Notes under the pieces: model-generated
The model's database searches: none
Told to the model about the DNA's origin: nothing
What the model saw: only the letters and a program-made list of their open reading frames with translations
IMG/VR virus record: IMGVR_UViG_3300031555_002371
Location: 32,001-96,000 of that record
Length of the DNA stretch: 64,000 nucleotides
Strand: one strand, 5' to 3'
From: a virus
Lineage: Duplodnaviria > Caudoviricetes
Program-made: the position numbers and the translations under genes
Shown: positions 1,828-64,000 of the stretch, one piece after another
How positions within the stretch are numbered: position 1 is the stretch's first letter
Layout: every line of letters starts with the position of its first letter

Positions 1828-4044
1828 ATGATAATTATTAAACGCGATTGCTCCGAGGTTGAATTCGATAAGTCAAAAATATACGATGCCATTATGAAGG
1901 CTATGACGTTCGGTAGTGGCGTTATCAAACCACACATAGCTCATGAAATTGCTGACGAAATCGAAACCGAGGCTGCATACATTGAAGATTTGAGCATTTA
2001 CATTGTTGAGTCGATGGTTTTTGAAAAGCTCATTGGTAAAGGCGAAACACTTACCGCAAAAGCATACGAAGGATATAGAAGTGTTCGTGAATTCCAGCGA
2101 GACGTAAAAAACTCAACGGATGACACGATTAAAGAATTACTTACTGGTAAAAGCGACTATTGGAACAATGAAAACTCTAACAAAAATGCAATGCTGGTAA
2201 CAACACAGCGAGATTACATTGCCGGTATTGAAAGCGAAGATGTTACTCGCCGTATGTATTTGCCGCCTGATATTGTACAGGCTCATGATGATGGCATCAT
2301 TCACTTCCATGATGCGGATTACTTCTTGCAGAAAGCATTGTATAATTGCTGTCTTATCAATCTTGAAGATATGCTTCAGAATGGTACAGTTATTAGCAAT
2401 ACCTTAATTGAGAAACCTCATAGTTTCTCTACTGCCTGCAACGTAGCAACACAGATTATTGCACAAGTTGCATCAAGTCAGTATGGCGGTCAAACAATTT
2501 CTCTTTCTCATCTCGCACCGTTTGTTGATGTAAGTAGAAATAACATCCGCAAAGAGGTAATTAAAGAACTCAAAGATGTTCTCAATCTTGCCGATAGCGA
2601 GGCGTTCACAGAAGCGGTTGAGAAAATCACAGAAAAAAGATTGAAAAAGGAAATCAATAGAGGCGTACAAACTATTCAATATCAAGTTGTAACGCTGCAA
2701 ACCACAAATGGGCAAGCTCCTTTTCTTTCAGTGTTTGCGTATCTTGGAGAAACTAAAGACACTCAAACCAAACAAGACCTTGCGTTAATTATCGAAGAAG
2801 TATTGCGACAGAGAATTCAGGGTGTCAAAAATGAGCAAGGAGTATGGGTAACTCCTGCTTTCCCTAAATTGCTTTATGTTCTTGAAGAAGATAATATGCG
2901 CGGCGGAAAGTATTGGTATCTAACAGAACTCGCAGCAAAGTGTACCGCAAAGCGTCTTGTTCCTGACTACATTTCTGAAAAGAAAATGCTCGAATATAAA
3001 ATTGACAAAAACGGCAATGGAAATTGCTATGCGTGTATGGGTTGCCGCAGTTTCCTTACGCCTTATGTAGACGAAAACGGAAATCCAAAATATTACGGCA
3101 GGTTCAATCAGGGCGTTGTTACTATCAATTTGGTTGACCTTGCACTTTCTTCAAAGGGTGATTTTGATGCCTTCTGGAAATTGCTTGAAGTAAGAACTGA
3201 GTTATGCCATAAAGCACTACAGATTAGGCACAACCGACTTGAGAATACCTTATCTGATGTTGCTCCAATCTTGTGGCAGCATGGAGCTATTGCAAGACTC
3301 AAAAAGGGTGAGAACATCAATAAACTCTTGCATGGTGGCTATTCAACAATTTCACTTGGATACGCTGGTCTTTATGAGTGTGTTAAGTATATGACTGGGC
3401 ATAGTCACACAGATGGGGATATTGGTGAAAAGTTTGGTCTTGAGGTTATGCAGGCTCTTAACGATAAGTGTAAGCAGTGGAAAGAAGCAGAATCTATTGA
3501 TTATAGCCTCTACGGAACACCAATCGAAACAACCACATATAAGTTTGCAAAGTGTCTCCAAAAGAGATTTGGAATTATCGAAGGCGTAACGGATAAAAAC
3601 TATATCACCAATTCGTATCACGTTCCTGTATTTGAAGAAATCAACGCATTTGATAAATTGGCTCTTGAAGCTAAATTCCAAAAATTGAGTCCCGGCGGCG
3701 CAATTAGTTACGTTGAAATTCCAAACCTTTCCGACAACCTTGATATTGTTCTTCAGATCATTGAGTTCATCTACAACAACATTATGTATGCAGAACTTAA
3801 TACTAAGAGTGATTATTGTACGGTATGTGGATACGATAAGGAAATTGAAATTGTAACAGATGCAGAAAGCGGTAACCTTTACTGGCGTTGCCCTAAGTGT
3901 GGTAATACTGACCAAAGCAAAATGAGCGTTACACGAAGAACTTGCGGTTATATTGGTACAAACTTTTGGAATCAAGGCAGAACTCAGGAAATCAAAGAAA
4001 GAGTCCTTCACATCGACGATAAAGAATGTGAGGAAACGCCTTAA
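1828..4044 (+). CDS. nrdD: anaerobic (class III) ribonucleotide reductase with ATP-cone
   Basis: IIKRD..EFDKSKI ATP-cone, IHFHDAD, NCCL, MGCRSFL, zinc site CTVC/CPKC, glycyl-radical motif RRTCGYI. Confidence 0.97.
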   Translation: MIIIKRDCSEVEFDKSKIYDAIMKAMTFGSGVIKPHIAHEIADEIETEAAYIEDLSIYIVESMVFEKLIGKGETLTAKAYEGYRSVREFQRDVKNSTDDTIKELLTGKSDYWNNENSNKNAMLVTTQRDYIAGIESEDVTRRMYLPPDIVQAHDDGIIHFHDADYFLQKALYNCCLINLEDMLQNGTVISNTLIEKPHSFSTACNVATQIIAQVASSQYGGQTISLSHLAPFVDVSRNNIRKEVIKELKDVLNLADSEAFTEAVEKITEKRLKKEINRGVQTIQYQVVTLQTTNGQAPFLSVFAYLGETKDTQTKQDLALIIEEVLRQRIQGVKNEQGVWVTPAFPKLLYVLEEDNMRGGKYWYLTELAAKCTAKRLVPDYISEKKMLEYKIDKNGNGNCYACMGCRSFLTPYVDENGNPKYYGRFNQGVVTINLVDLALSSKGDFDAFWKLLEVRTELCHKALQIRHNRLENTLSDVAPILWQHGAIARLKKGENINKLLHGGYSTISLGYAGLYECVKYMTGHSHTDGDIGEKFGLEVMQALNDKCKQWKEAESIDYSLYGTPIETTTYKFAKCLQKRFGIIEGVTDKNYITNSYHVPVFEEINAFDKLALEAKFQKLSPGGAISYVEIPNLSDNLDIVLQIIEFIYNNIMYAELNTKSDYCTVCGYDKEIEIVTDAESGNLYWRCPKCGNTDQSKMSVTRRTCGYIGTNFWNQGRTQEIKERVLHIDDKECEETP

Positions 4045-56694: not shown

Positions 56695-58137
56695 TTAAAG
56701 ATTGATAATTAAACCTCGATATGCGCTTACAACTTTATATGTTTTATCATTCTTTGAGATAGCATTAGAAAGTTGTTTAACAAGGCAATGTTTGCTCTTA
56801 TCAGAGCCGTGAACAAGAACAATTTTATTCGTGTTTAAAGAACTACCATATTTCACAAGGTCTGCATTACTTGCATGACTACTAAATGTAGATAAGGTAA
56901 TGCAATCCGCTCTATTTGAAATTTTCTCTTTGTTAATAGAGATAAATTTATGCTCTCGATAATTTTTGATTCGATAAGACAAATATGATGGGTTGTCTCC
57001 TGTATATCCAGAAAAAATAATTGTACTATTTACATCTTTGAGGTATCGTTTGAGATAACTTACAATTCGACCATTAGTACAGAATCCAGAAGATGAAATA
57101 ATAATCTTTGGGATAGGATTTGCAACGACCCCCGTAGATTCGGTTTTGTCGGATACAAACTTGACATTTTCCCACGAACATACTTCTTGCCATTTTTTCA
57201 AATCAGCTTTTGTGAGCAAACTTGAATAAAGATTGCTAATATCACAACTTAATTTAGAATCAACAAAAATAGGGGTGACAAAATCTTTATCACCACCAAA
57301 AATATCAAAAATAGTAGTCAGTAATTCTTGTGTTCTACTAAAACTAAAACAGGGTAAAATTACAGTTCCTTTTCTTTCAAGCGTTGTTTCAATAGCGCAT
57401 TTCAAACGAGAGATGTCAAACTCTCTGGTTTTCTTTGATATTCTTGATGAATCTCCATATGTTGACTCCATAATAACCACATCGTTAAACATCGATGGGA
57501 TTTCAGTATTAGGAACATAATGATTTTCGGTTTTTAACGAACCGATGTCTGATGTATAAAGAACACGCTTCTTTTGATTTCCGTCGGATAAGATTAATTG
57601 TATTTGTGCAGCTCCAACACAATGAGAGTTGTTAAGCAACTGAAAACTCAAATTGTTATTCAACTTAAAAACCTTGTTATATTCTCTATATGTATCAATT
57701 AGCCTAAAAGTTTCATACACATCATCTTCGTCGTATAATGGCTGATAATCACGTTTATAACGCTTTGATAAAACCCTTGCTTCATCTTGAACAATTGCGC
57801 ATGAATTCAACAATAGAGGCTTCATAATTTTTGCAGTATTTTCGGTTGCAATAATTCTACCTCTAAAGCCATGTTTTACAAGTCTTGGCAAAAGACCGCA
57901 ATGGTCAATATGTGGATGGGCAACAAATACATAATCGATTTCAGAAGGTTTGAACTTAAATTTCTCCGTGTTTATTTTATATGAGTCCAAATAATCATTA
58001 CTCTGCGATTGATGCAATCCACACTCTAATAAACACTGTGTGTCACCATATCTTATTAAATACTGTGAGCCGGTAACATCTTCCGATGCCTTTCCAATAA
58101 AATGAATTCCATTAGTTTTTAATTTTTTCTTCGCCAT
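56695..58137 (-). CDS. metallo-beta-lactamase / beta-CASP ribonuclease
   Basis: VTGS, HPHIDHCG, YTSDIG, MESTYG, RTQELL, FSSHA, VLVHG. Confidence 0.9.
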   Translation of the reverse strand: MAKKKLKTNGIHFIGKASEDVTGSQYLIRYGDTQCLLECGLHQSQSNDYLDSYKINTEKFKFKPSEIDYVFVAHPHIDHCGLLPRLVKHGFRGRIIATENTAKIMKPLLLNSCAIVQDEARVLSKRYKRDYQPLYDEDDVYETFRLIDTYREYNKVFKLNNNLSFQLLNNSHCVGAAQIQLILSDGNQKKRVLYTSDIGSLKTENHYVPNTEIPSMFNDVVIMESTYGDSSRISKKTREFDISRLKCAIETTLERKGTVILPCFSFSRTQELLTTIFDIFGGDKDFVTPIFVDSKLSCDISNLYSSLLTKADLKKWQEVCSWENVKFVSDKTESTGVVANPIPKIIISSSGFCTNGRIVSYLKRYLKDVNSTIIFSGYTGDNPSYLSYRIKNYREHKFISINKEKISNRADCITLSTFSSHASNADLVKYGSSLNTNKIVLVHGSDKSKHCLVKQLSNAISKNDKTYKVVSAYRGLIINL

Positions 58138-58315
58138 ATGAACCTCGCACTAAATTATGAGCTATATCAGCATATTCATCCATGATGTATCTCCTGTGCT
58201 TGGTTTTGGTGTAACTGACAAGAGAACCATTTTTATCGATTACGCCTCTTTCAGTTGATGTCAAAATTTTTTCTTTAAGAAGTAAATCCATTTCTTCTCT
58301 TGTAATCTCTTTCAA
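58112..58315 (-). CDS. small hypothetical protein
   Basis: AAGGATGG SD, overlaps the next gene. Confidence 0.6.
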   Translation of the reverse strand: MKEITREEMDLLLKEKILTSTERGVIDKNGSLVSYTKTKHRRYIMDEYADIAHNLVRGSYGEEKIKN

Positions 58316-58393
58316 ATGGTTTATACCATCCTTTGCTTTTAAATTAACGACCCGACTGGTTGTGCATCGTTGAGAGGCGTGTCGGGTTCTGTT

Positions 58394-58468
58394 TGGAGCT
58401 GGCGATAGGAGTCGAACCTACAACCTGCTGATTACAAGTCAGCTGCTCTGCCATTGAGCCACGCCAGC
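58394..58468 (-). tRNA. tRNA-Thr(TGT)
   Basis: cloverleaf, GCTGA-CTTGTAA-TCAGC, CCA. Confidence 0.95.
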
Positions 58469-58529
58469 ATATAACATTCGCTATAACCCGAATGTTTACC
58501 TCGTGAGAGGGTTTGCTTTTCGCAATGAT

Positions 58530-58606
58530 TGGTGATGGCAACGGGAATTGAACCCATATTACGACCTTGAAAGGGTCGTGTCCTATACCGTTTAGACGAT
58601 GCCACC
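58530..58606 (-). tRNA. tRNA-Glu(TTC)
   Basis: CGACC-CTTTCAA-GGTCG, CCA. Confidence 0.92.
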
Positions 58607-58609
58607 ATT

Positions 58610-58685
58610 TGGCTCTCTGTGTAGGCATCGAACCTACTACCCACTGGTTAACAGCCAGTTGCTCTACCGATTGAGCTAACAGAGA
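58610..58685 (-). tRNA. tRNA-Asn(GTT)
   Basis: ACTGG-CTGTTAA-CCAGT, CCA. Confidence 0.95.
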
Positions 58686-58868
58686 ATATAGAGATATGCG
58701 AACATATCTTATAATGCTTTTCTTTCAGATTTCTCCTATTCGAGAATTGGTTCAACACTAACCATTTTTGCCAAACCCTACGCTATCACTTCCTCGACCA
58801 AGCAATAGTCATCATCGGTTGACAACATCTCATGTATGTTGTCTTGTCGGCATACCGACCCTGGCTGT

Positions 58869-58943
58869 TGGCGACTCATAAGGGAATCGAACCCATATCT
58901 TCGGAGAGACAGTCCGATGTAATAGCCTTTATACCAATGAGCC
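58869..58943 (-). tRNA. tRNA-Asp(GTC)
   Basis: TCGGA-CTGTCTC-TCCGA, CCA. Confidence 0.9.
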
Positions 58944-58952
58944 ATATATTTG

Positions 58953-59039
58953 TGGTGGGTAGGGTAGGATTTGAACCTACGAAGCCGTAAGGCAACGGTT
59001 TTACAGACCGCCCGCTTTGAACCACTTGCATACCTACCC
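58953..59039 (-). tRNA. tRNA-Tyr(GTA)
   Basis: GCGGT-CTGTAAA-ACCGT, long variable arm, CCA. Confidence 0.95.
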
Positions 59040-59043
59040 GTAA

Positions 59044-59498
59044 ATTAACCGCTATATAGAAAACTAAAACATCATATCAATCCAACCAATTTATCTGTTA
59101 AACGCATAAGCGTGTTATAAAAAGAAAATCATTGTTGAAAAAACTATTCTTTTTTTTCAAAATCATTAAAAATTTTAATTAAATCAGAAAACGATGGTTG
59201 CAACGATGGTTGATATAGAGAATTGATGTATTGTGGTAATAGTGGTTGTTGGATAGCTTGATGTTAGAAGAATGCACTTGCTTTTCGCTGAACGAACCTT
59301 TTTTTTGAATATTTGACACCCCATAATCAAATCATATCATCTAAACTTACTATTAGTAGAATTTATGTATCAGCATTAAATGTAAAACATTTACGAGAAG
59401 ATATTAAGCATACCTTTGGCTATGCAGCATTACACTTCATCTGCACACGAAGCGATTGAAATCAACAATCTGTTTCAGTTCTCTATATAGCGGTTAAT
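59044..59498 (-). ncRNA. putative ~455-nt structured RNA closed by a 28-bp helix
   Basis: Terminal inverted repeats 59044-59071 and 59471-59498; both mismatches become G.U only on the minus strand; several internal hairpins; no ORF. Confidence 0.6.
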
Positions 59499-59580
59499 CG
59501 TGGAAATTGAGGAATCAATGTTTATTTCTTCAAAACCAATTGAACGTAGAAGGATGATTCCTCATAGCCACATAATATTT

Positions 59581-60213
59581 TTAATTTTTAGATACTTTCC
59601 ATTTTTCAATCGCATCCTCAAGGTTGTCGCCAATGTCGAGTTCGGTTTCGTACTCAACCATTGTTTCAAGCTGCATAACATCAATCTTGGTCGATGTATC
59701 ATCAAGTTCTTTACGAAGGCGATTTGCGATTGCCTTAACTTTATTTCTGTCGAAATCAATTGTAGTTACTTCTTTGATGTCGTAACAATATACGGTCTGA
59801 TTACCCTCACCGTTAAACTTGGTAGCCTTACCAGTTGTAATGGTTTCGGACGCCTTAATGTTAGCCATAGCGACTAATCTATTAAGAAGCATTCTCTTAC
59901 GATTATTAACTGCAATCATGCCATCAAAATCATGACCATTTGCGGTTTTTGCCTTGTTGATAGCAATAGTCAACTTCTCGGACTCATCCTGAAGATAACA
60001 AGCAAAATCAATAAGCTCTCCAACATTGGATGCACAATCGGTCATCTTTGGCTTTACGATTGTTTCATCCTCTGCTTCGGCAAATGCTTTCTTACGCATA
60101 TGCTCCTGTGTAACAATGGTGATGTTAGCGGGATAGCCAAGAATCACAATGATTTCATCAGATAACTTTTTCAAATAATTCTGCACTTCAAAACTTTTCT
60201 TTAATGTAATCAC
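59581..60213 (-). CDS. 210-aa helical/coiled-coil hypothetical protein upstream of the structured RNA
   Basis: AAGGAG SD, GTG start, amphipathic helices. Confidence 0.8.
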   Translation of the reverse strand: MITLKKSFEVQNYLKKLSDEIIVILGYPANITIVTQEHMRKKAFAEAEDETIVKPKMTDCASNVGELIDFACYLQDESEKLTIAINKAKTANGHDFDGMIAVNNRKRMLLNRLVAMANIKASETITTGKATKFNGEGNQTVYCYDIKEVTTIDFDRNKVKAIANRLRKELDDTSTKIDVMQLETMVEYETELDIGDNLEDAIEKWKVSKN

Positions 60214-60449
60214 AACTATTTACTCCTTTTGTTTTAATTAAACTATTTATTTAAACTTTTCAATGAGATTTGCGGCTGGCACAGCAGTTGCCATGCCAGC
60301 GCACCACAAAGAAAAGAGAAAGATAAAGAAATGAAAGCAGAGGGTATATATCCCTCTATTATACGAAAAAACAGGTTTTTCAGATTCAGTTTTAAGCCTC
60401 GAAAGTTTCGGGGCTAAGAGGGGGTAAAATAAAATTCATCTAAAAATTG

Positions 60450-61313
60450 TTAAACGGAATTTTTATTTTTCTTTCGCTCTCTATCATATGCCTTTACAAA
60501 TTCTCGTTGACAACTCACACATCTACAAGTACGATTGTTCTTGGAGTCCACTTGAAATTCATAACCACAATCTACGCATTTGATGGTTTTTATTTCTTGC
60601 GGAGAATATTGTGTGCAGGAAGAACAGTATTTCTTCGTACCATTTTTGTTGCCCTTGGTTAAGATATCGCATTCGCTGCAACGAATATAATTTTCTCCTT
60701 TGTATTTTAGATACTCATATCCAAGCTCACGGAAGTCATAAACTTGAAATACTTTTTCGCTCTCGTCATCGACAAATGTAACTCGACAACTTAAATTATC
60801 ATTTCGTTTTGGCAATTCCAATAGACCCAGTTTGCGCAATTTTCCAATCTTAATGTCGCGGTCTTGTAAGTTGCAAGTAATGCGAGCCAAAGTGAAAATC
60901 TCTTTGTCGCCAACGTTAACCCATCCGTTGTTTTGTGCATTTTTAATATTTCCAAGTTTAGCAAGACACAAGAATGTGAAAATCAATCGTTCAAGAACTT
61001 TATTGTGGATACCCGTTATGGTATCAAGCTCAGATTGAGTAATCCATACACCGTCTATTTGGTATAATGTGTATTTCCCAGCGTTGCTCGCTATACGTTC
61101 AATATTGGCATCCCAATCGAGTTTATTGTTTTCGTAGTGTGGATAGTTTTTCTCCATAAAATCAATTAGCAGGGAAGTTATTTTCTTCTTTCGATATCCA
61201 AGGTGATGATAATAATATTTTGCCAGAATCGAAAGTGTGGAAAACGGCTTTCCTACAATCTGCCCATTGTTAATACAATTTTCGGCAAATTCTTTTTCGT
61301 TAAGAATAATCAT
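60450..61313 (-). CDS. hypothetical protein with C-terminal zinc fingers
   Basis: CSEC..CSSC, CVDC..CVSC; overlaps the RNA polymerase gene. Confidence 0.75.
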   Translation of the reverse strand: MIILNEKEFAENCINNGQIVGKPFSTLSILAKYYYHHLGYRKKKITSLLIDFMEKNYPHYENNKLDWDANIERIASNAGKYTLYQIDGVWITQSELDTITGIHNKVLERLIFTFLCLAKLGNIKNAQNNGWVNVGDKEIFTLARITCNLQDRDIKIGKLRKLGLLELPKRNDNLSCRVTFVDDESEKVFQVYDFRELGYEYLKYKGENYIRCSECDILTKGNKNGTKKYCSSCTQYSPQEIKTIKCVDCGYEFQVDSKNNRTCRCVSCQREFVKAYDRERKKNKNSV

Positions 61314-64000
61314 CAATCTCACCTCCTAATGTTTTGGTTTTCATAACGAAGTCGATTCCGCAATATTGGAAATCGCCAACATCGTCTGTCTGCTCCGGGA
61401 ACTGAATCTGCCCGCCAGAGTTCCTAAGTAAATTTTTTATAATAACATTCCCACTAACATCCCACGCAAACTGTTTGGAATTCTCAGTGTGATAAAGCAT
61501 ATCAATAACAATATTACATAATTCATCTTCGTTGGAACAAATTTTTTCGCATTCGCTTTTGAACCACTTGGAACAAACATCTCTTTCCATCCAGAGGTCA
61601 TAAATATCTACCTTTTGGTTCTCACTTTTCTTTTTGAATAGTTCTAACTTCTGAAGGTATTCCTTGTATATTGCATAAACCTTGTTAAAGTCGTGTTTAC
61701 TATATTCCGCGTCACTTTTCAATATAGAGCAATCAAAAGTAGGCTGCTCACACTTCTTTGACAAATACCCTTTAAATGTCTGCTCAAACAACCAGCATAT
61801 TCTATTGACGATACAGGCATTTGTTCCAACAGGTTTGAGTTTATAATAATAATCCAAATACTCAATCATTTCTTCGGTCTTATCCTGATATGCTTCAAGC
61901 TCTTGAATTGTGTAAATACCGTATTCCCAGAATCTTCTGGCTACACCTTGATTGTTGCTTTTTTGGTAGAGATTATTTTGAGTTTTAAGGCTTGGATACA
62001 CATAAGTCATAAAATACGGCTTATTAGCAGCCACAATAGACTTATTAAATTCTTTTCTTTTGATTGCATCCTCGTCATCGGTGTCCTTGATTTTATTGTC
62101 TCGATAACTATACCAATAGCTTGGCATTGATTTTGCGATAACGCCTTTCGCTCTATCAATTGTGTTTTGCTGATAAAGCTGTCCGCACATAATGCGATAA
62201 CCAAGTGTCTCATATTCTATTGTCCCAGGTTCAAATCCTGCTTGAACCTCAAACATTCCGGTGATATGATTTGTTACTGTTCCGATATCGTCGTTAAATG
62301 CAAGTTTGTTTGCTTGTATGATATCATCTTCGCTTGGAATTTTCTTATCCGCTTTTCGCTGTACACACATAATTGTTTTCAGGTTTTGTGTATTATGTAA
62401 AATAACGGGGTTGTCGGTACACATATTTGTATCACCGTCTTTATCAGCTCCGTTCATAGCGTCACAAGCAGTATCAAAAGCATTGAAAATAAGAGCGGTG
62501 GTGATATACTGATACCAATAGCGAGTGTCCTCGTTATTTGCAAGCCTCATTCTGCGGATATTGTTATGACACGTCATTGGCGCACGAAAACAAGCAATTT
62601 CTTCGGCGGATCGGTCAATCCAATATTTGTGATATACCTCTCCCGCTTTTAGCAATCCTGTGATTTCAAGTCCGAACATACTCTGTGCCAATGCATAAGG
62701 GTCTCCGCTAATCATTGCAAAATTTGCATTGATACGAATTGCGCCCCTCTCACCCATTTCAATACGCTTACGAATCATATTCCAGATTTTGTGACGAATG
62801 TGCGGGTCATTAATCATACGCTTATCTGCCATGAGAGCTTTTACGCAGTAATCTATATTATCGCCAAAGGCGTTTTTTTCGTTTAAGCCGAAACCAGCAA
62901 GAAACACAATACTCTTGCGGTAGTCCATACCCAGAATATCCTTAATCTCATCAATGGTCGGTTGGCAAAGTTCGTATAGTTCTTCGTCAGTAAAATGATA
63001 ACTCTGTAAAAATTGGTAATTGGTGTCTCTAACACCCTCTAATTTGTTAGGTGTAGTTTTGGGTGTGGAGAACTGATAATGATTTTCTTGGCAATTACGA
63101 TAAAAGTCCTCCCAGCTATCATAGCTATCCCAGAGCTTCAACATTGATACAGTAAGAATAACTTCAGCGTTTCTTATATCCCTCTTGTCGCCCCACGCAT
63201 CTGTTATCTCATAAGTCCCTGCGACCTTTTCCGCAAACTCCAAAAAGTCAAATGTATATACCATCCCCTTAGTCCATGCATATCGTGTATTCATACCGGC
63301 AATAGTATGTTCGCCATCACCAGTTAAATACTCATTAACCTTTCTGGAATAAGAGGGGAGCATTAAGCCGTAGCCATCAGAGTCATTGTGTTCGATTTCA
63401 AAATCGTTTTCATAACTCATAATCGGCTCATCACTATTTTCATCATTGAGAAGAATGATATCTTCTTTAAAGCGGGTAATGCAATCATTCACAACAATAA
63501 TACCGTTTGGCTCTGGTATAGGGACGGAACCAGAGCAGATAAGTGCTTGGTATGCTTCGAGTTTGGCTGGTACAAGCTCTTTTTCTATATTACGCCCATT
63601 ATCAAGTCGCTTTTTTAACTCAGGATATATTTCTTCGTTTACGTAAACAATCGTGGAGTTTTTAATGCCGCCATTTGTGCCGAGAAATCTACGATATCGG
63701 ATAATGCAACTCTTTCCATCAATTTGACCGAAGTTGATTGAGAACCCGTCATTTGCTCTATCATAATCGGCGTTGTTCTCCATGATTACACAAACATAAT
63801 CTTTTTGGAACTGCAGATTATACAAATTATCGTAATACTTGTTAATCAGCATTTTTGTTTCTCTTGTTTTTGGTTTTTTCTTTGTGTCTCTAATCTTTCT
63901 CTGAATACATCTTACAGCATCATTGATGTCGTTCTGGTTATTGATTTCATCAATGAAGCGTAAACATTGGCTGTCGTTCAATGCCACTATGCAATCCGGG
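61300..64000 (-). CDS. YonO-like single-subunit (two-barrel) RNA polymerase, 5' truncated
   Basis: DGYGL, WTKGM, FRAP, MNGADKDGD (DxDGD metal motif), QNTIDRAKG; frame open to the window edge. Confidence 0.85.
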   Translation of the reverse strand, partial: PDCIVALNDSQCLRFIDEINNQNDINDAVRCIQRKIRDTKKKPKTRETKMLINKYYDNLYNLQFQKDYVCVIMENNADYDRANDGFSINFGQIDGKSCIIRYRRFLGTNGGIKNSTIVYVNEEIYPELKKRLDNGRNIEKELVPAKLEAYQALICSGSVPIPEPNGIIVVNDCITRFKEDIILLNDENSDEPIMSYENDFEIEHNDSDGYGLMLPSYSRKVNEYLTGDGEHTIAGMNTRYAWTKGMVYTFDFLEFAEKVAGTYEITDAWGDKRDIRNAEVILTVSMLKLWDSYDSWEDFYRNCQENHYQFSTPKTTPNKLEGVRDTNYQFLQSYHFTDEELYELCQPTIDEIKDILGMDYRKSIVFLAGFGLNEKNAFGDNIDYCVKALMADKRMINDPHIRHKIWNMIRKRIEMGERGAIRINANFAMISGDPYALAQSMFGLEITGLLKAGEVYHKYWIDRSAEEIACFRAPMTCHNNIRRMRLANNEDTRYWYQYITTALIFNAFDTACDAMNGADKDGDTNMCTDNPVILHNTQNLKTIMCVQRKADKKIPSEDDIIQANKLAFNDDIGTVTNHITGMFEVQAGFEPGTIEYETLGYRIMCGQLYQQNTIDRAKGVIAKSMPSYWYSYRDNKIKDTDDEDAIKRKEFNKSIVAANKPYFMTYVYPSLKTQNNLYQKSNNQGVARRFWEYGIYTIQELEAYQDKTEEMIEYLDYYYKLKPVGTNACIVNRICWLFEQTFKGYLSKKCEQPTFDCSILKSDAEYSKHDFNKVYAIYKEYLQKLELFKKKSENQKVDIYDLWMERDVCSKWFKSECEKICSNEDELCNIVIDMLYHTENSKQFAWDVSGNVIIKNLLRNSGGQIQFPEQTDDVGDFQYCGIDFVMKTKTLGGEIDDYS

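Follow-up and report, generated by a model that had tools for sequence, protein, structure and literature searches.

The locus lies in a window of 64,000 nt, the whole stretch of DNA that was analysed, which represents bases 32001–96000 of a viral record 156,001 bp in length. In minus-strand order, the features are a gene for a YonO-type RNA polymerase, one for a 290-aa zinc-ribbon protein, a 210-aa gene, an RNA element, five tRNAs (Tyr, Asp, Asn, Glu and Thr, in that order 3′ of the RNA), a beta-CASP RNase-like gene and a gene for a ClpP-like protease. YonJ, YonG and HU-like genes in relatives identify the phages as SPbeta-like. The features that surround the RNA element are as follows.

61300–63999, minus strand: YonO-type single-subunit RNA polymerase (PF05183)
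60270–60330, minus strand: conserved pyrimidine-rich leader with a 14–18-bp hairpin, 5′ of the 210-aa gene, found only in an SPbeta-like phage subgroup
59581–60213, minus strand: gene of the 210-aa partner protein (helical, with a long beta-hairpin, acidic, predicted homodimer)
59508–59564, minus strand: spacer hairpin between the 210-aa gene and the RNA, its loop beginning with the conserved AUCCUUCUA, found only in close phage relatives
58953–59039, minus strand: tRNA-Tyr, the first of the five tRNAs (ARAGORN and Rfam), 4 nt from the closing helix of the RNA

The stem of the spacer hairpin, described in the original prediction as a further hairpin linking the RNA to the 210-aa gene, is present as a 10-bp inverted repeat (59508–59517 and 59555–59564), and the hairpin was also found with altered stem letters in the homologous loci L004 and L006. 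The same pyrimidine-rich leader appeared when the window, L004, L006, L007 and L008 were folded, and the hairpin stems of these loci vary in sequence and covary. Upstream of the module, no genes were common to the bacterial and phage loci; a zinc-ribbon tail was common only to the two phage upstream proteins, and the 212-aa upstream gene of L084 was rejected as a paralogue.

Linkage of the RNA to the protein gene

Homologues of the 210-aa protein were collected from 69 viral contigs, and relatives were found in 112 bacterial-genome loci, of which the best 80 were kept. A stem of at least 24 bp, spanning 380–522 nt, starts 10–190 nt after the gene in 62 of the 65 viral loci with enough DNA (L064, L066 and L070 are without it), and such a stem starts 5–40 nt past the stop codon in 73 of 77 bacterial loci, nearly all of them with the pseudoknot motif PK1 described below. 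The gap between gene and RNA is usually 5–20 nt, while the phage spacer measures 83–190 nt. After the gene of P0140, a distant homologue of the protein that neighbours a MobA relaxase, comes an ordinary gene and no RNA, and the protein can therefore work without it.

A covariance model of the PK1 region, termed R1, matched one copy per genome in the 156-kb phage genome and in two bacterial genomes. Among sampled genomes R1, which misses RNA subtype B as well as L037, L043 and L084, matched 3 of the 151 drawn from the family and 9 of the 41 from the genus Faecalibacterium. The protein profile matched the same nine Faecalibacterium genomes and none of the other 32, with the RNA match ~50 nt downstream, and this identical distribution indicates that the RNA and the protein form one accessory unit. 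The protein–ncRNA module that had been supposed at this locus is thus borne out by more than 130 loci in which the RNA follows the gene, together with the exact co-occurrence in Faecalibacterium. The hosts are gut and rumen Clostridia, chiefly Oscillospiraceae and Faecalibacterium, and include F. prausnitzii ATCC 27768 and one complete Oscillospiraceae genome; the module is found in chromosomes, integrative elements and SPbeta-like phages. In F. prausnitzii ATCC 27768 it occupies ~66.9–67.9 kb of NZ_PXUP01000012.1 and is locus L110, whose gene spans 2986–3639 and whose RNA spans 3647–4028. One small integrated element, located beside rplM–rpsI, carries an integrase, an excisionase, two HTH genes and a version of the RNA 354 nt long; a 3.7-kb block with the module is ~93% alike across Faecalibacterium species.

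The association with tRNA genes is of a different extent. In the window the RNA ends 4 nt before tRNA-Tyr (which ends at 59039), as had been stated from the sequence. A tRNA-Tyr gene lies 4–9 nt after the 3′ arm of the closing helix in the window, L015, L019, L021, L024, L025 and L084, and its place is taken by tRNA-Thr in L023 and tRNA-Arg in L072; these nine loci correspond to 8 of the 41 non-redundant viral loci, including the window, plus L084. In 25 of the 41 non-redundant viral loci, the stretch of the locus that follows the RNA yielded no tRNA, and the same applies to the integrated bacterial copy L088. Given this scarcity of tRNAs at the RNA 3′ end, linkage to the protein gene is what holds generally, and linkage to tRNAs is a local use. 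Release of the RNA by tRNA processing, as proposed in the original prediction, accordingly suits the phage lineage of the window but does not carry over to most viral loci or to L088.

Closing handle, pseudoknot core and variable body

The RNA is 455 nt long in the window and ~350–530 nt across the family. When the regions downstream of the protein homologues were aligned and examined for covariation, a conserved, covarying structure was found, with the following parts in the window.

59471–59498, minus strand: 5′ strand of the closing helix P1
59450–59465, minus strand: 5′ strand of P2 (UUCAAUC core), which extends the handle past an internal loop (RNAalifold)
59422–59453, minus strand: PK1, a conserved H-type pseudoknot (S1, 59453–59448 with 59439–59434; S2, 59446–59441 with 59427–59422)
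59398–59421, minus strand: possible second pseudoknot (AGC/GCU and AAGGUAU/AUAUCUU), from a by-eye reading of phage versions
59196–59474, minus strand: stretch under separate metatranscriptome contigs in two studies, possibly a stable species
59190–59275, minus strand: G-poor, C/A-rich tract, closed by two tandem CAACCAUCGUU words at 59190–59212
59077–59096, minus strand: conserved AAAUUGG junction strand and 3′ strand of P2 (GGUUGGA), paired by RNAalifold
59044–59071, minus strand: 3′ strand of P1, ending 4 nt before tRNA-Tyr

The P1 arms are 28 nt each, 93% complementary and 399 nt apart, in agreement with the 28-bp pairing of 59498–59471 with 59071–59044 noted earlier, and reading of the sequence confirmed that its two mismatches are both G.U on the minus strand. 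Within the window the arm pattern occurs only at the two P1 sites (0 expected in shuffles), and these sites are also its only occurrences in the whole 156-kb genome. P1 is ~27–31 bp long in the family, and its arms vary widely yet stay complementary (AUUAACCGCUAUAUAGAG in the window, UUCGGCUGCCUCGUUCAG in L032 and CACCGGCUAUUUUGGGUG in Faecalibacterium). Among 28 aligned elements, 27 consecutive P1 pairs each occur with several Watson–Crick types, and covariation was detected in 21 of 28 P1 pairs in a second alignment.

The P1 stems of 88 non-redundant elements were scored by a procedure that favoured neither strand. They comprised 2177 Watson–Crick, 203 G.U, 53 A.C and 43 other pairs, G.U being read on the strand of the gene; G.U outnumbered A.C in 72 elements and A.C outnumbered G.U in 9. 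Because a repeat maintained as duplex DNA would give no strand bias between G.U and A.C, the approximately fourfold excess of G.U on the gene's strand argues for selection on RNA and not on DNA, which supports what had been surmised from the two mismatches of the window. The whole element also folds better than shuffles (z of −4.9 and −3.8 on the two strands), but these values were set aside because a long stem would produce them by itself.

Helix P2 (UUCAAUC/GGUUGGA in the window) covaries, with compensatory changes to UUUCAACC/GGUUGAAA in L029 and to CAAAACC/GGUUUUG in L032, and together with P1 it makes up a handle of ~45 bp. AATTG is invariant in alignment A2, and the near-invariant AAAUUGG strand is set at the junction by P2.

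The most conserved part of the RNA is PK1, whose 12 pairs are formed by CGCUUCA with UGAAGU (S1) and by the loop GUGCAG with the downstream CUGCAU (S2). In alignment A5, with 60 distinct sequences, the PK1 strands paired in 95.6% of cells versus 86.7% in shuffles, and the covariation score was 0.259 versus 0.097, a value reached by 0 of 500 shuffles; in slid controls the paired fraction collapsed to 25–39% in every case. Two-sided changes were observed in all 6 of the S2 pairs, the S1 pair 15–32 occurred as GC 40, CG 18 and UA 2 times, and in L084 S2 is completely swapped (UCCUAA/UUAGGA). The pseudoknot that had been raised as a possibility, between the loop TGTGCAG and CTGCATA, is therefore real, and the RNA displays compensatory changes above controls, the generic criterion for a conserved structured RNA. 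For the candidate second pseudoknot, analogues were recognised by eye in L032 (GGUG/CACC and UUCAAGUA/UACUUGAA), L029, L048, L050 and L060; it is missing from bacterial versions of the RNA.

The handle and the PK1 core close a body of 250–350 nt that is too variable to align, and global alignments of whole RNAs contained no conserved interior helix. The small hairpins listed in the original prediction (TAAATGT/ACATTTA, TTGAAAAAA/TTTTTTCAA and ACGC/GCGT) are seen when the RNA of the window is folded by itself, but relatives do not conserve them, and the unalignable interior marks them as local. The G-poor tract with its repeated words met a similar fate. It is pronounced in the window, where the lowest 60-nt stretch has 1 G, below all control segments of the locus, and where AACGATGGTTG (on the minus strand, CAACCATCGTT) occurs twice at 59190–59212 as the sole direct repeat in the RNA (2 × 11 nt); in the family it is merely a tendency (mean minimum of 0.09 versus 0.147 in controls), and it was rejected as a family hallmark because in only 41% of elements is the tract more extreme than in 95% of controls. 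The tract of many relatives terminates in a related motif, AUCGUUUCGCCAA, located at RNA position ~270–320, which is the counterpart of the doubled CAACCAUCGUU. A scan of the viral contigs for the 21-nt repeat word picked up nothing but a tandem repeat in coding sequence of L177, unrelated to the word. The interval 59100–59190 has an A+T content of 85%. Close relatives among the Faecalibacterium copies (375–387 nt) differ by lengths that are not multiples of 3, which argues against a coding function. A second RNA subtype (B), found in L061–L081, keeps the handle and has a different 5′ core consisting of a pair of hairpins that covary, one of them with an AGCGAUR loop. Taken as a whole, the comparison of loci establishes a conserved, non-coding and elaborately folded RNA that forms a single-copy accessory module with one protein gene.

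Partner protein and traces of expression

The 210-aa protein had been called an orphan, which proved wrong: a profile search placed it in a family of 926 clusters at 50% identity. The family matched no fitting Pfam, NCBIfam or PADLOC family and no PHROG function, a sequence search of the PDB with the 210-aa protein returned nothing usable, and tblastn of the protein against 50,697 GenBank phage records gave no match; blastn of the region against GenBank phages found tRNA matches only. The AlphaFold (AF2) model, with a pLDDT of 96.8, consists of five helices and a long beta-hairpin that has the conserved KFNGEGNQ motif at its tip, and the fold contains no nuclease, membrane or other recognisable domain and no toxin fold. 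The best match among solved folds was 3kdq_A (Z of 10.7, rmsd of 3.7 Å over 146 aligned residues, Foldseek probability of 0.93), a Corynebacterium diphtheriae protein of unknown function that shares just 12% identity with the 210-aa protein. Searches of structure atlases led to unnamed superfamilies, with DUF6847 and DUF7873 as distant relatives; like 3kdq, these have neither a known function nor a reported RNA partner. The family is acidic, with a median pI of 5.3 and a net charge of ~−6.

Modelling supports a homodimer. The homodimer score was 0.55 compared with 0.00 for the best control, a mark attained by 20 of 30 proteins with structures solved as same-chain pairs and by 1 of 23 with single-chain structures, and three runs agreed in at least 95% of contacts with a partner pLDDT of at least 85. 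Many conserved residues lie in the predicted dimer interface.

Contigs of four sequencing runs were mapped onto the region; these are assemblies, from which strand and level are absent. In X2, a bovine-gut metatranscriptome, record 15 is represented by a contig at 59196–59474 that is separate from the contig of the gene. Record 23 of X3, a second metatranscriptome study, likewise has a separate contig, 59199–59460, and the Illumina adapter letters at 59199 indicate that many fragments stop there. The DNA-like run X1 has one contig (58639–59778), which extends across both end points of these RNA contigs and is collinear with the window. These contigs give a weak hint of a discrete stable RNA over RNA positions 25–303. 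Neither X2 nor X3 has a contig over 59044–59195, and the handle arms are absent from the RNA contigs; since the uncovered stretch is highly A+T-rich (85%) and the data are assemblies, the gap says nothing firm about the mature 3′ end. Contig depth was 61 and 124 on the RNA and 6.6 and 9.0 on the gene, one figure per contig, which cannot rank the parts.

Known RNAs, rival readings and a proposed role

A cmscan of 58300–60500 against all 4227 families of Rfam 15 found nothing in the element (59044–59498) at E ≤ 10, a scan at gathering thresholds was likewise empty there, and nothing from Rfam was found at E ≤ 0.1 in the homologous loci L110, L088, L164 and L077, so that the earlier failure to match this RNA to GOLLD or ROOL holds. 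ROOL, GOLLD, OLE, HEARO and raiA were rejected for want of a covariance-model match, and tmRNA was rejected because ARAGORN reports only tRNAs in the window and there was no Rfam tmRNA match. The closing helix, the pseudoknots, the phage and tRNA neighbourhood and the length of ~400 nt would all suit a diverged member of a known family (tmRNA, RNase P RNA, 6S, ROOL, GOLLD, OLE or HEARO) that the models miss, but in view of the empty searches of the element and of the four further loci we find such a derivation scarcely credible. A retron msr–msd was also rejected, there being no RT domain among the neighbours (the 210-aa gene, the 290-aa zinc-ribbon protein and the tRNAs). We found no published description of the RNA or the protein; the RNA, or fragments of it, may sit among the thousands of unnamed candidates in bulk catalogues (PMC10690425, PMC8040213). 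Neither RNA nor protein is in any of the searched libraries, and the RNA looks like a previously uncatalogued class.

ROOL and GOLLD resemble the module RNA in being large and structured, with pseudoknots, and in occurring in phages of gut and rumen Firmicutes, often beside tRNA genes. Unlike them, the module RNA keeps to a single protein family and is also found in bacterial chromosomes without tRNAs; no obligatory partner gene is known for ROOL or GOLLD. Both form RNA-only assemblies (PMC12286853). As in the present module, each of the OLE/Oap, HEARO/omega RNA–IscB and TnpB omega RNA pairs shows genetic linkage between a large structured RNA and one specific protein gene. The omega RNA pairs are also carried by mobile elements, omega RNAs join a conserved scaffold to a variable part as the module RNA does, and the TnpB RNA originates at the 3′ end of the transcript that encodes the protein, which is the probable source of the module RNA. 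The module protein differs from the OLE, HEARO and TnpB partners in having no nuclease, membrane or other recognisable domain.

The reading that we favour, and regard as fairly probable, is that this is an uncatalogued large RNA that is processed from the 3′ UTR of the gene and works with the ~210-aa partner protein. The RNA would be transcribed as a 3′ extension of the mRNA of the 210-aa gene, a co-transcription suggested by the usual gap of 5–20 nt, and would then be excised from the transcript at the handle. A long helix closing the ends and a downstream tRNA are classic excision signals in polycistronic transcripts. In the phage of the window, RNase P acting at the 5′ end of tRNA-Tyr, 4 nt downstream, would set the precursor 3′ end just behind the handle, and the 5′ side would be trimmed by an endonuclease at or near the handle. 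The RNase III stems of rRNA and phage T7 and the tRNA-linked RNAs of T4 share with the module an end-to-end long helix and a tRNA directly downstream; in contrast to those systems, the module helix carries many G.U pairs, most members have no adjacent tRNA, and processing is here inferred. The excised RNA would accumulate as a stable species and act jointly with the acidic dimeric protein, either as a ribonucleoprotein in which the pseudoknot–handle core would be what the protein recognises or as an RNA whose activity is set by the protein. What the loci establish is genetic linkage; direct binding of protein and RNA is a plausible assumption that calls for caution because the protein is acidic, which is unusual for an RNA-coating protein.

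The placement of the RNA could also mean that it is a purely cis-acting 3′ UTR that stabilises the mRNA upstream of it or sets its timing, by blocking exonucleases or through autoregulation by RNase III, and has no function of its own. The start of the RNA 5–20 nt past the stop codon in most loci leaves no room for a promoter, and a helix of 27–31 bp is a plausible substrate of RNase III, to judge from the established specificity of this enzyme. On the other hand, 350–530 nt with a conserved pseudoknot core far exceed the needs of known stabilisers, the phage spacer of 83–190 nt parts the gene from the RNA and has a conserved hairpin of its own, and complementarity between the RNA interior and the ribosome-binding region of the gene was no better than in shuffles (median z of −0.06). 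The separation of the RNA-library contigs from the contig of the gene points weakly the same way, and overall we consider a solely cis-acting role unlikely. If the pair were instead toxin–antitoxin-like, or served in defence or counter-defence, with the RNA neutralising or licensing the protein, its strict co-inheritance and patchy, island-like distribution would be explained. The exact co-occurrence of RNA and protein, their accessory distribution (3/151 family and 9/41 genus genomes) and their occurrence in phages are in keeping with this, and so is a copy in an integrative element, next to a DUF3990 gene with matches to PADLOC candidate systems. A type III (ToxIN-like) system was nevertheless rejected: the RNA lies downstream of the gene whereas type III antitoxins lie upstream, its direct repeat is just 2 × 11 nt, far from an array of tandem repeats, and there was no PADLOC match. 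As the protein has no PADLOC family and neither a nuclease nor another toxin fold, and as its distant homologue does without the RNA, we hold a toxin–antitoxin or defence pair of any type to be quite unlikely.

A further question is whether the element acts as DNA, that is, as a replication origin with iterons and an A+T-rich stretch, as a single-strand origin or promoter, as a segment that inverts, or as a miniature transposon bounded by terminal inverted repeats. Long inverted repeats, short words ~9–12 nt apart and the 85% A+T of 59100–59190 are features that such an element might have, some copies follow cro-like genes or lie beside a relaxase, both frequent sites of origins, and folded single-stranded DNA would tolerate G.T as well. 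The excess of G.U over A.C on one strand (203 to 53) and a covarying pseudoknot, which would be meaningless in duplex DNA, stand against these points. MITE or transposon ends, the case in which the terminal repeats would have had copies elsewhere, were rejected: the 156-kb genome has no further copy, two bacterial genomes have one each, and a single copy with the same gene alongside is not the pattern of a MITE. An inverton was rejected because the gene lay on the PK1 side in each of the more than 130 loci examined, so that no inversion was seen, and because the X1 contig is collinear with the window. A DNA-level role is thus very improbable. We mention, as a speculation to which we give little weight, that the module may be an RNA-centred mobile-element system comparable to HEARO/omega RNA before IscB was understood, in which the core would be a scaffold recognised by the protein and the fast-evolving, partly unstructured body a programmable or multivalent component, such as a guide, decoy or assembly platform, in conflicts among phages, integrative elements and Clostridial hosts; a search for a guide–target relation of the RNA found none.

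Large structured bacterial RNAs of unknown function are rare, and several of them, such as OLE, the ROOL and GOLLD cages and the omega RNAs, have led to new biology. The RNA described here comes with more than 130 examples from phages, integrative elements and chromosomes, a pseudoknot proven by covariation and an exact genetic partner, and its presence in the cultured and medically relevant F. prausnitzii ATCC 27768 makes its function directly testable. As an RNA that heads phage tRNA arrays, it also bears on the role of phage tRNA clusters and the RNAs that accompany them.

A second RNA subtype and internal motifs

Comparison of the ~455-nt structured RNA (window 59044-59498, minus strand) with related viral loci showed that loci L061-L081 carry a second subtype, in which the handle (closing helix P1 plus P2) and the partner protein (210 aa in the window) are the same and the 5′ core is different. 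This core consists of a hairpin (CAGU-ACAUA-ACUG) followed by a second hairpin with the loop AGCGAUR, and when L061-L081 were compared by eye, both stems showed compensatory changes. The second subtype was not detected in these loci by R1, a covariance model built on the PK1 pseudoknot region of the RNA.

A 12-nt word, CAACCATCGTTG, occurs twice in the window, at 59190-59212. The same word was found as a tandem array of ~10 copies in a viral contig that is otherwise unrelated (L177:4300-4425). There, a 98-aa ORF on the opposite strand contains the array, which is adjacent to a tRNA gene. One further element was found within the RNA:

59313-59340, plus strand (opposite to the RNA): putative near-consensus sigma-70 promoter

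Its sequence (TTGACA, 16 nt, TATCAT) matches the consensus at 11 of 12 positions, and it is directed back into the 210-aa gene.

The tRNA cluster and the gene behind it

58350-58386 and 58710-58820, minus strand: two small Rfam motifs (abiF RNA, drum RNA) within the tRNA cluster
56695-58137, minus strand: beta-CASP/metallo-beta-lactamase RNase-like gene (RNase J/CPSF type), 480 aa

The Rfam match to abiF RNA scored above threshold (42.4 vs. 37 bits), and that to drum RNA just under it (39 vs. 43 bits). The beta-CASP gene immediately follows the cluster. Its product is a candidate for processing the RNA-tRNA transcript.

Upstream region and phage type

61300-63999, minus strand: large gene, YonO-like single-subunit RNA polymerase
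60270-60330, minus strand: pyrimidine-rich leader and hairpin, upstream of the 210-aa gene

The large upstream gene matches PF05183 (RdRP family) and PHROGs of unknown function. It encodes a YonO-like single-subunit RNA polymerase and thereby identifies the phage as SPbeta-like. The leader, UUCUUUAUCUUUCUCUUUUCUUUGUG, is conserved upstream of the 210-aa gene in the window and in four other phage loci (L004, L006, L007, and L008). A 14-18-bp hairpin comes directly after it, with a stem sequence that varies from phage to phage. Leader and hairpin together may represent a promoter or leader element of the SPbeta-like subgroup.
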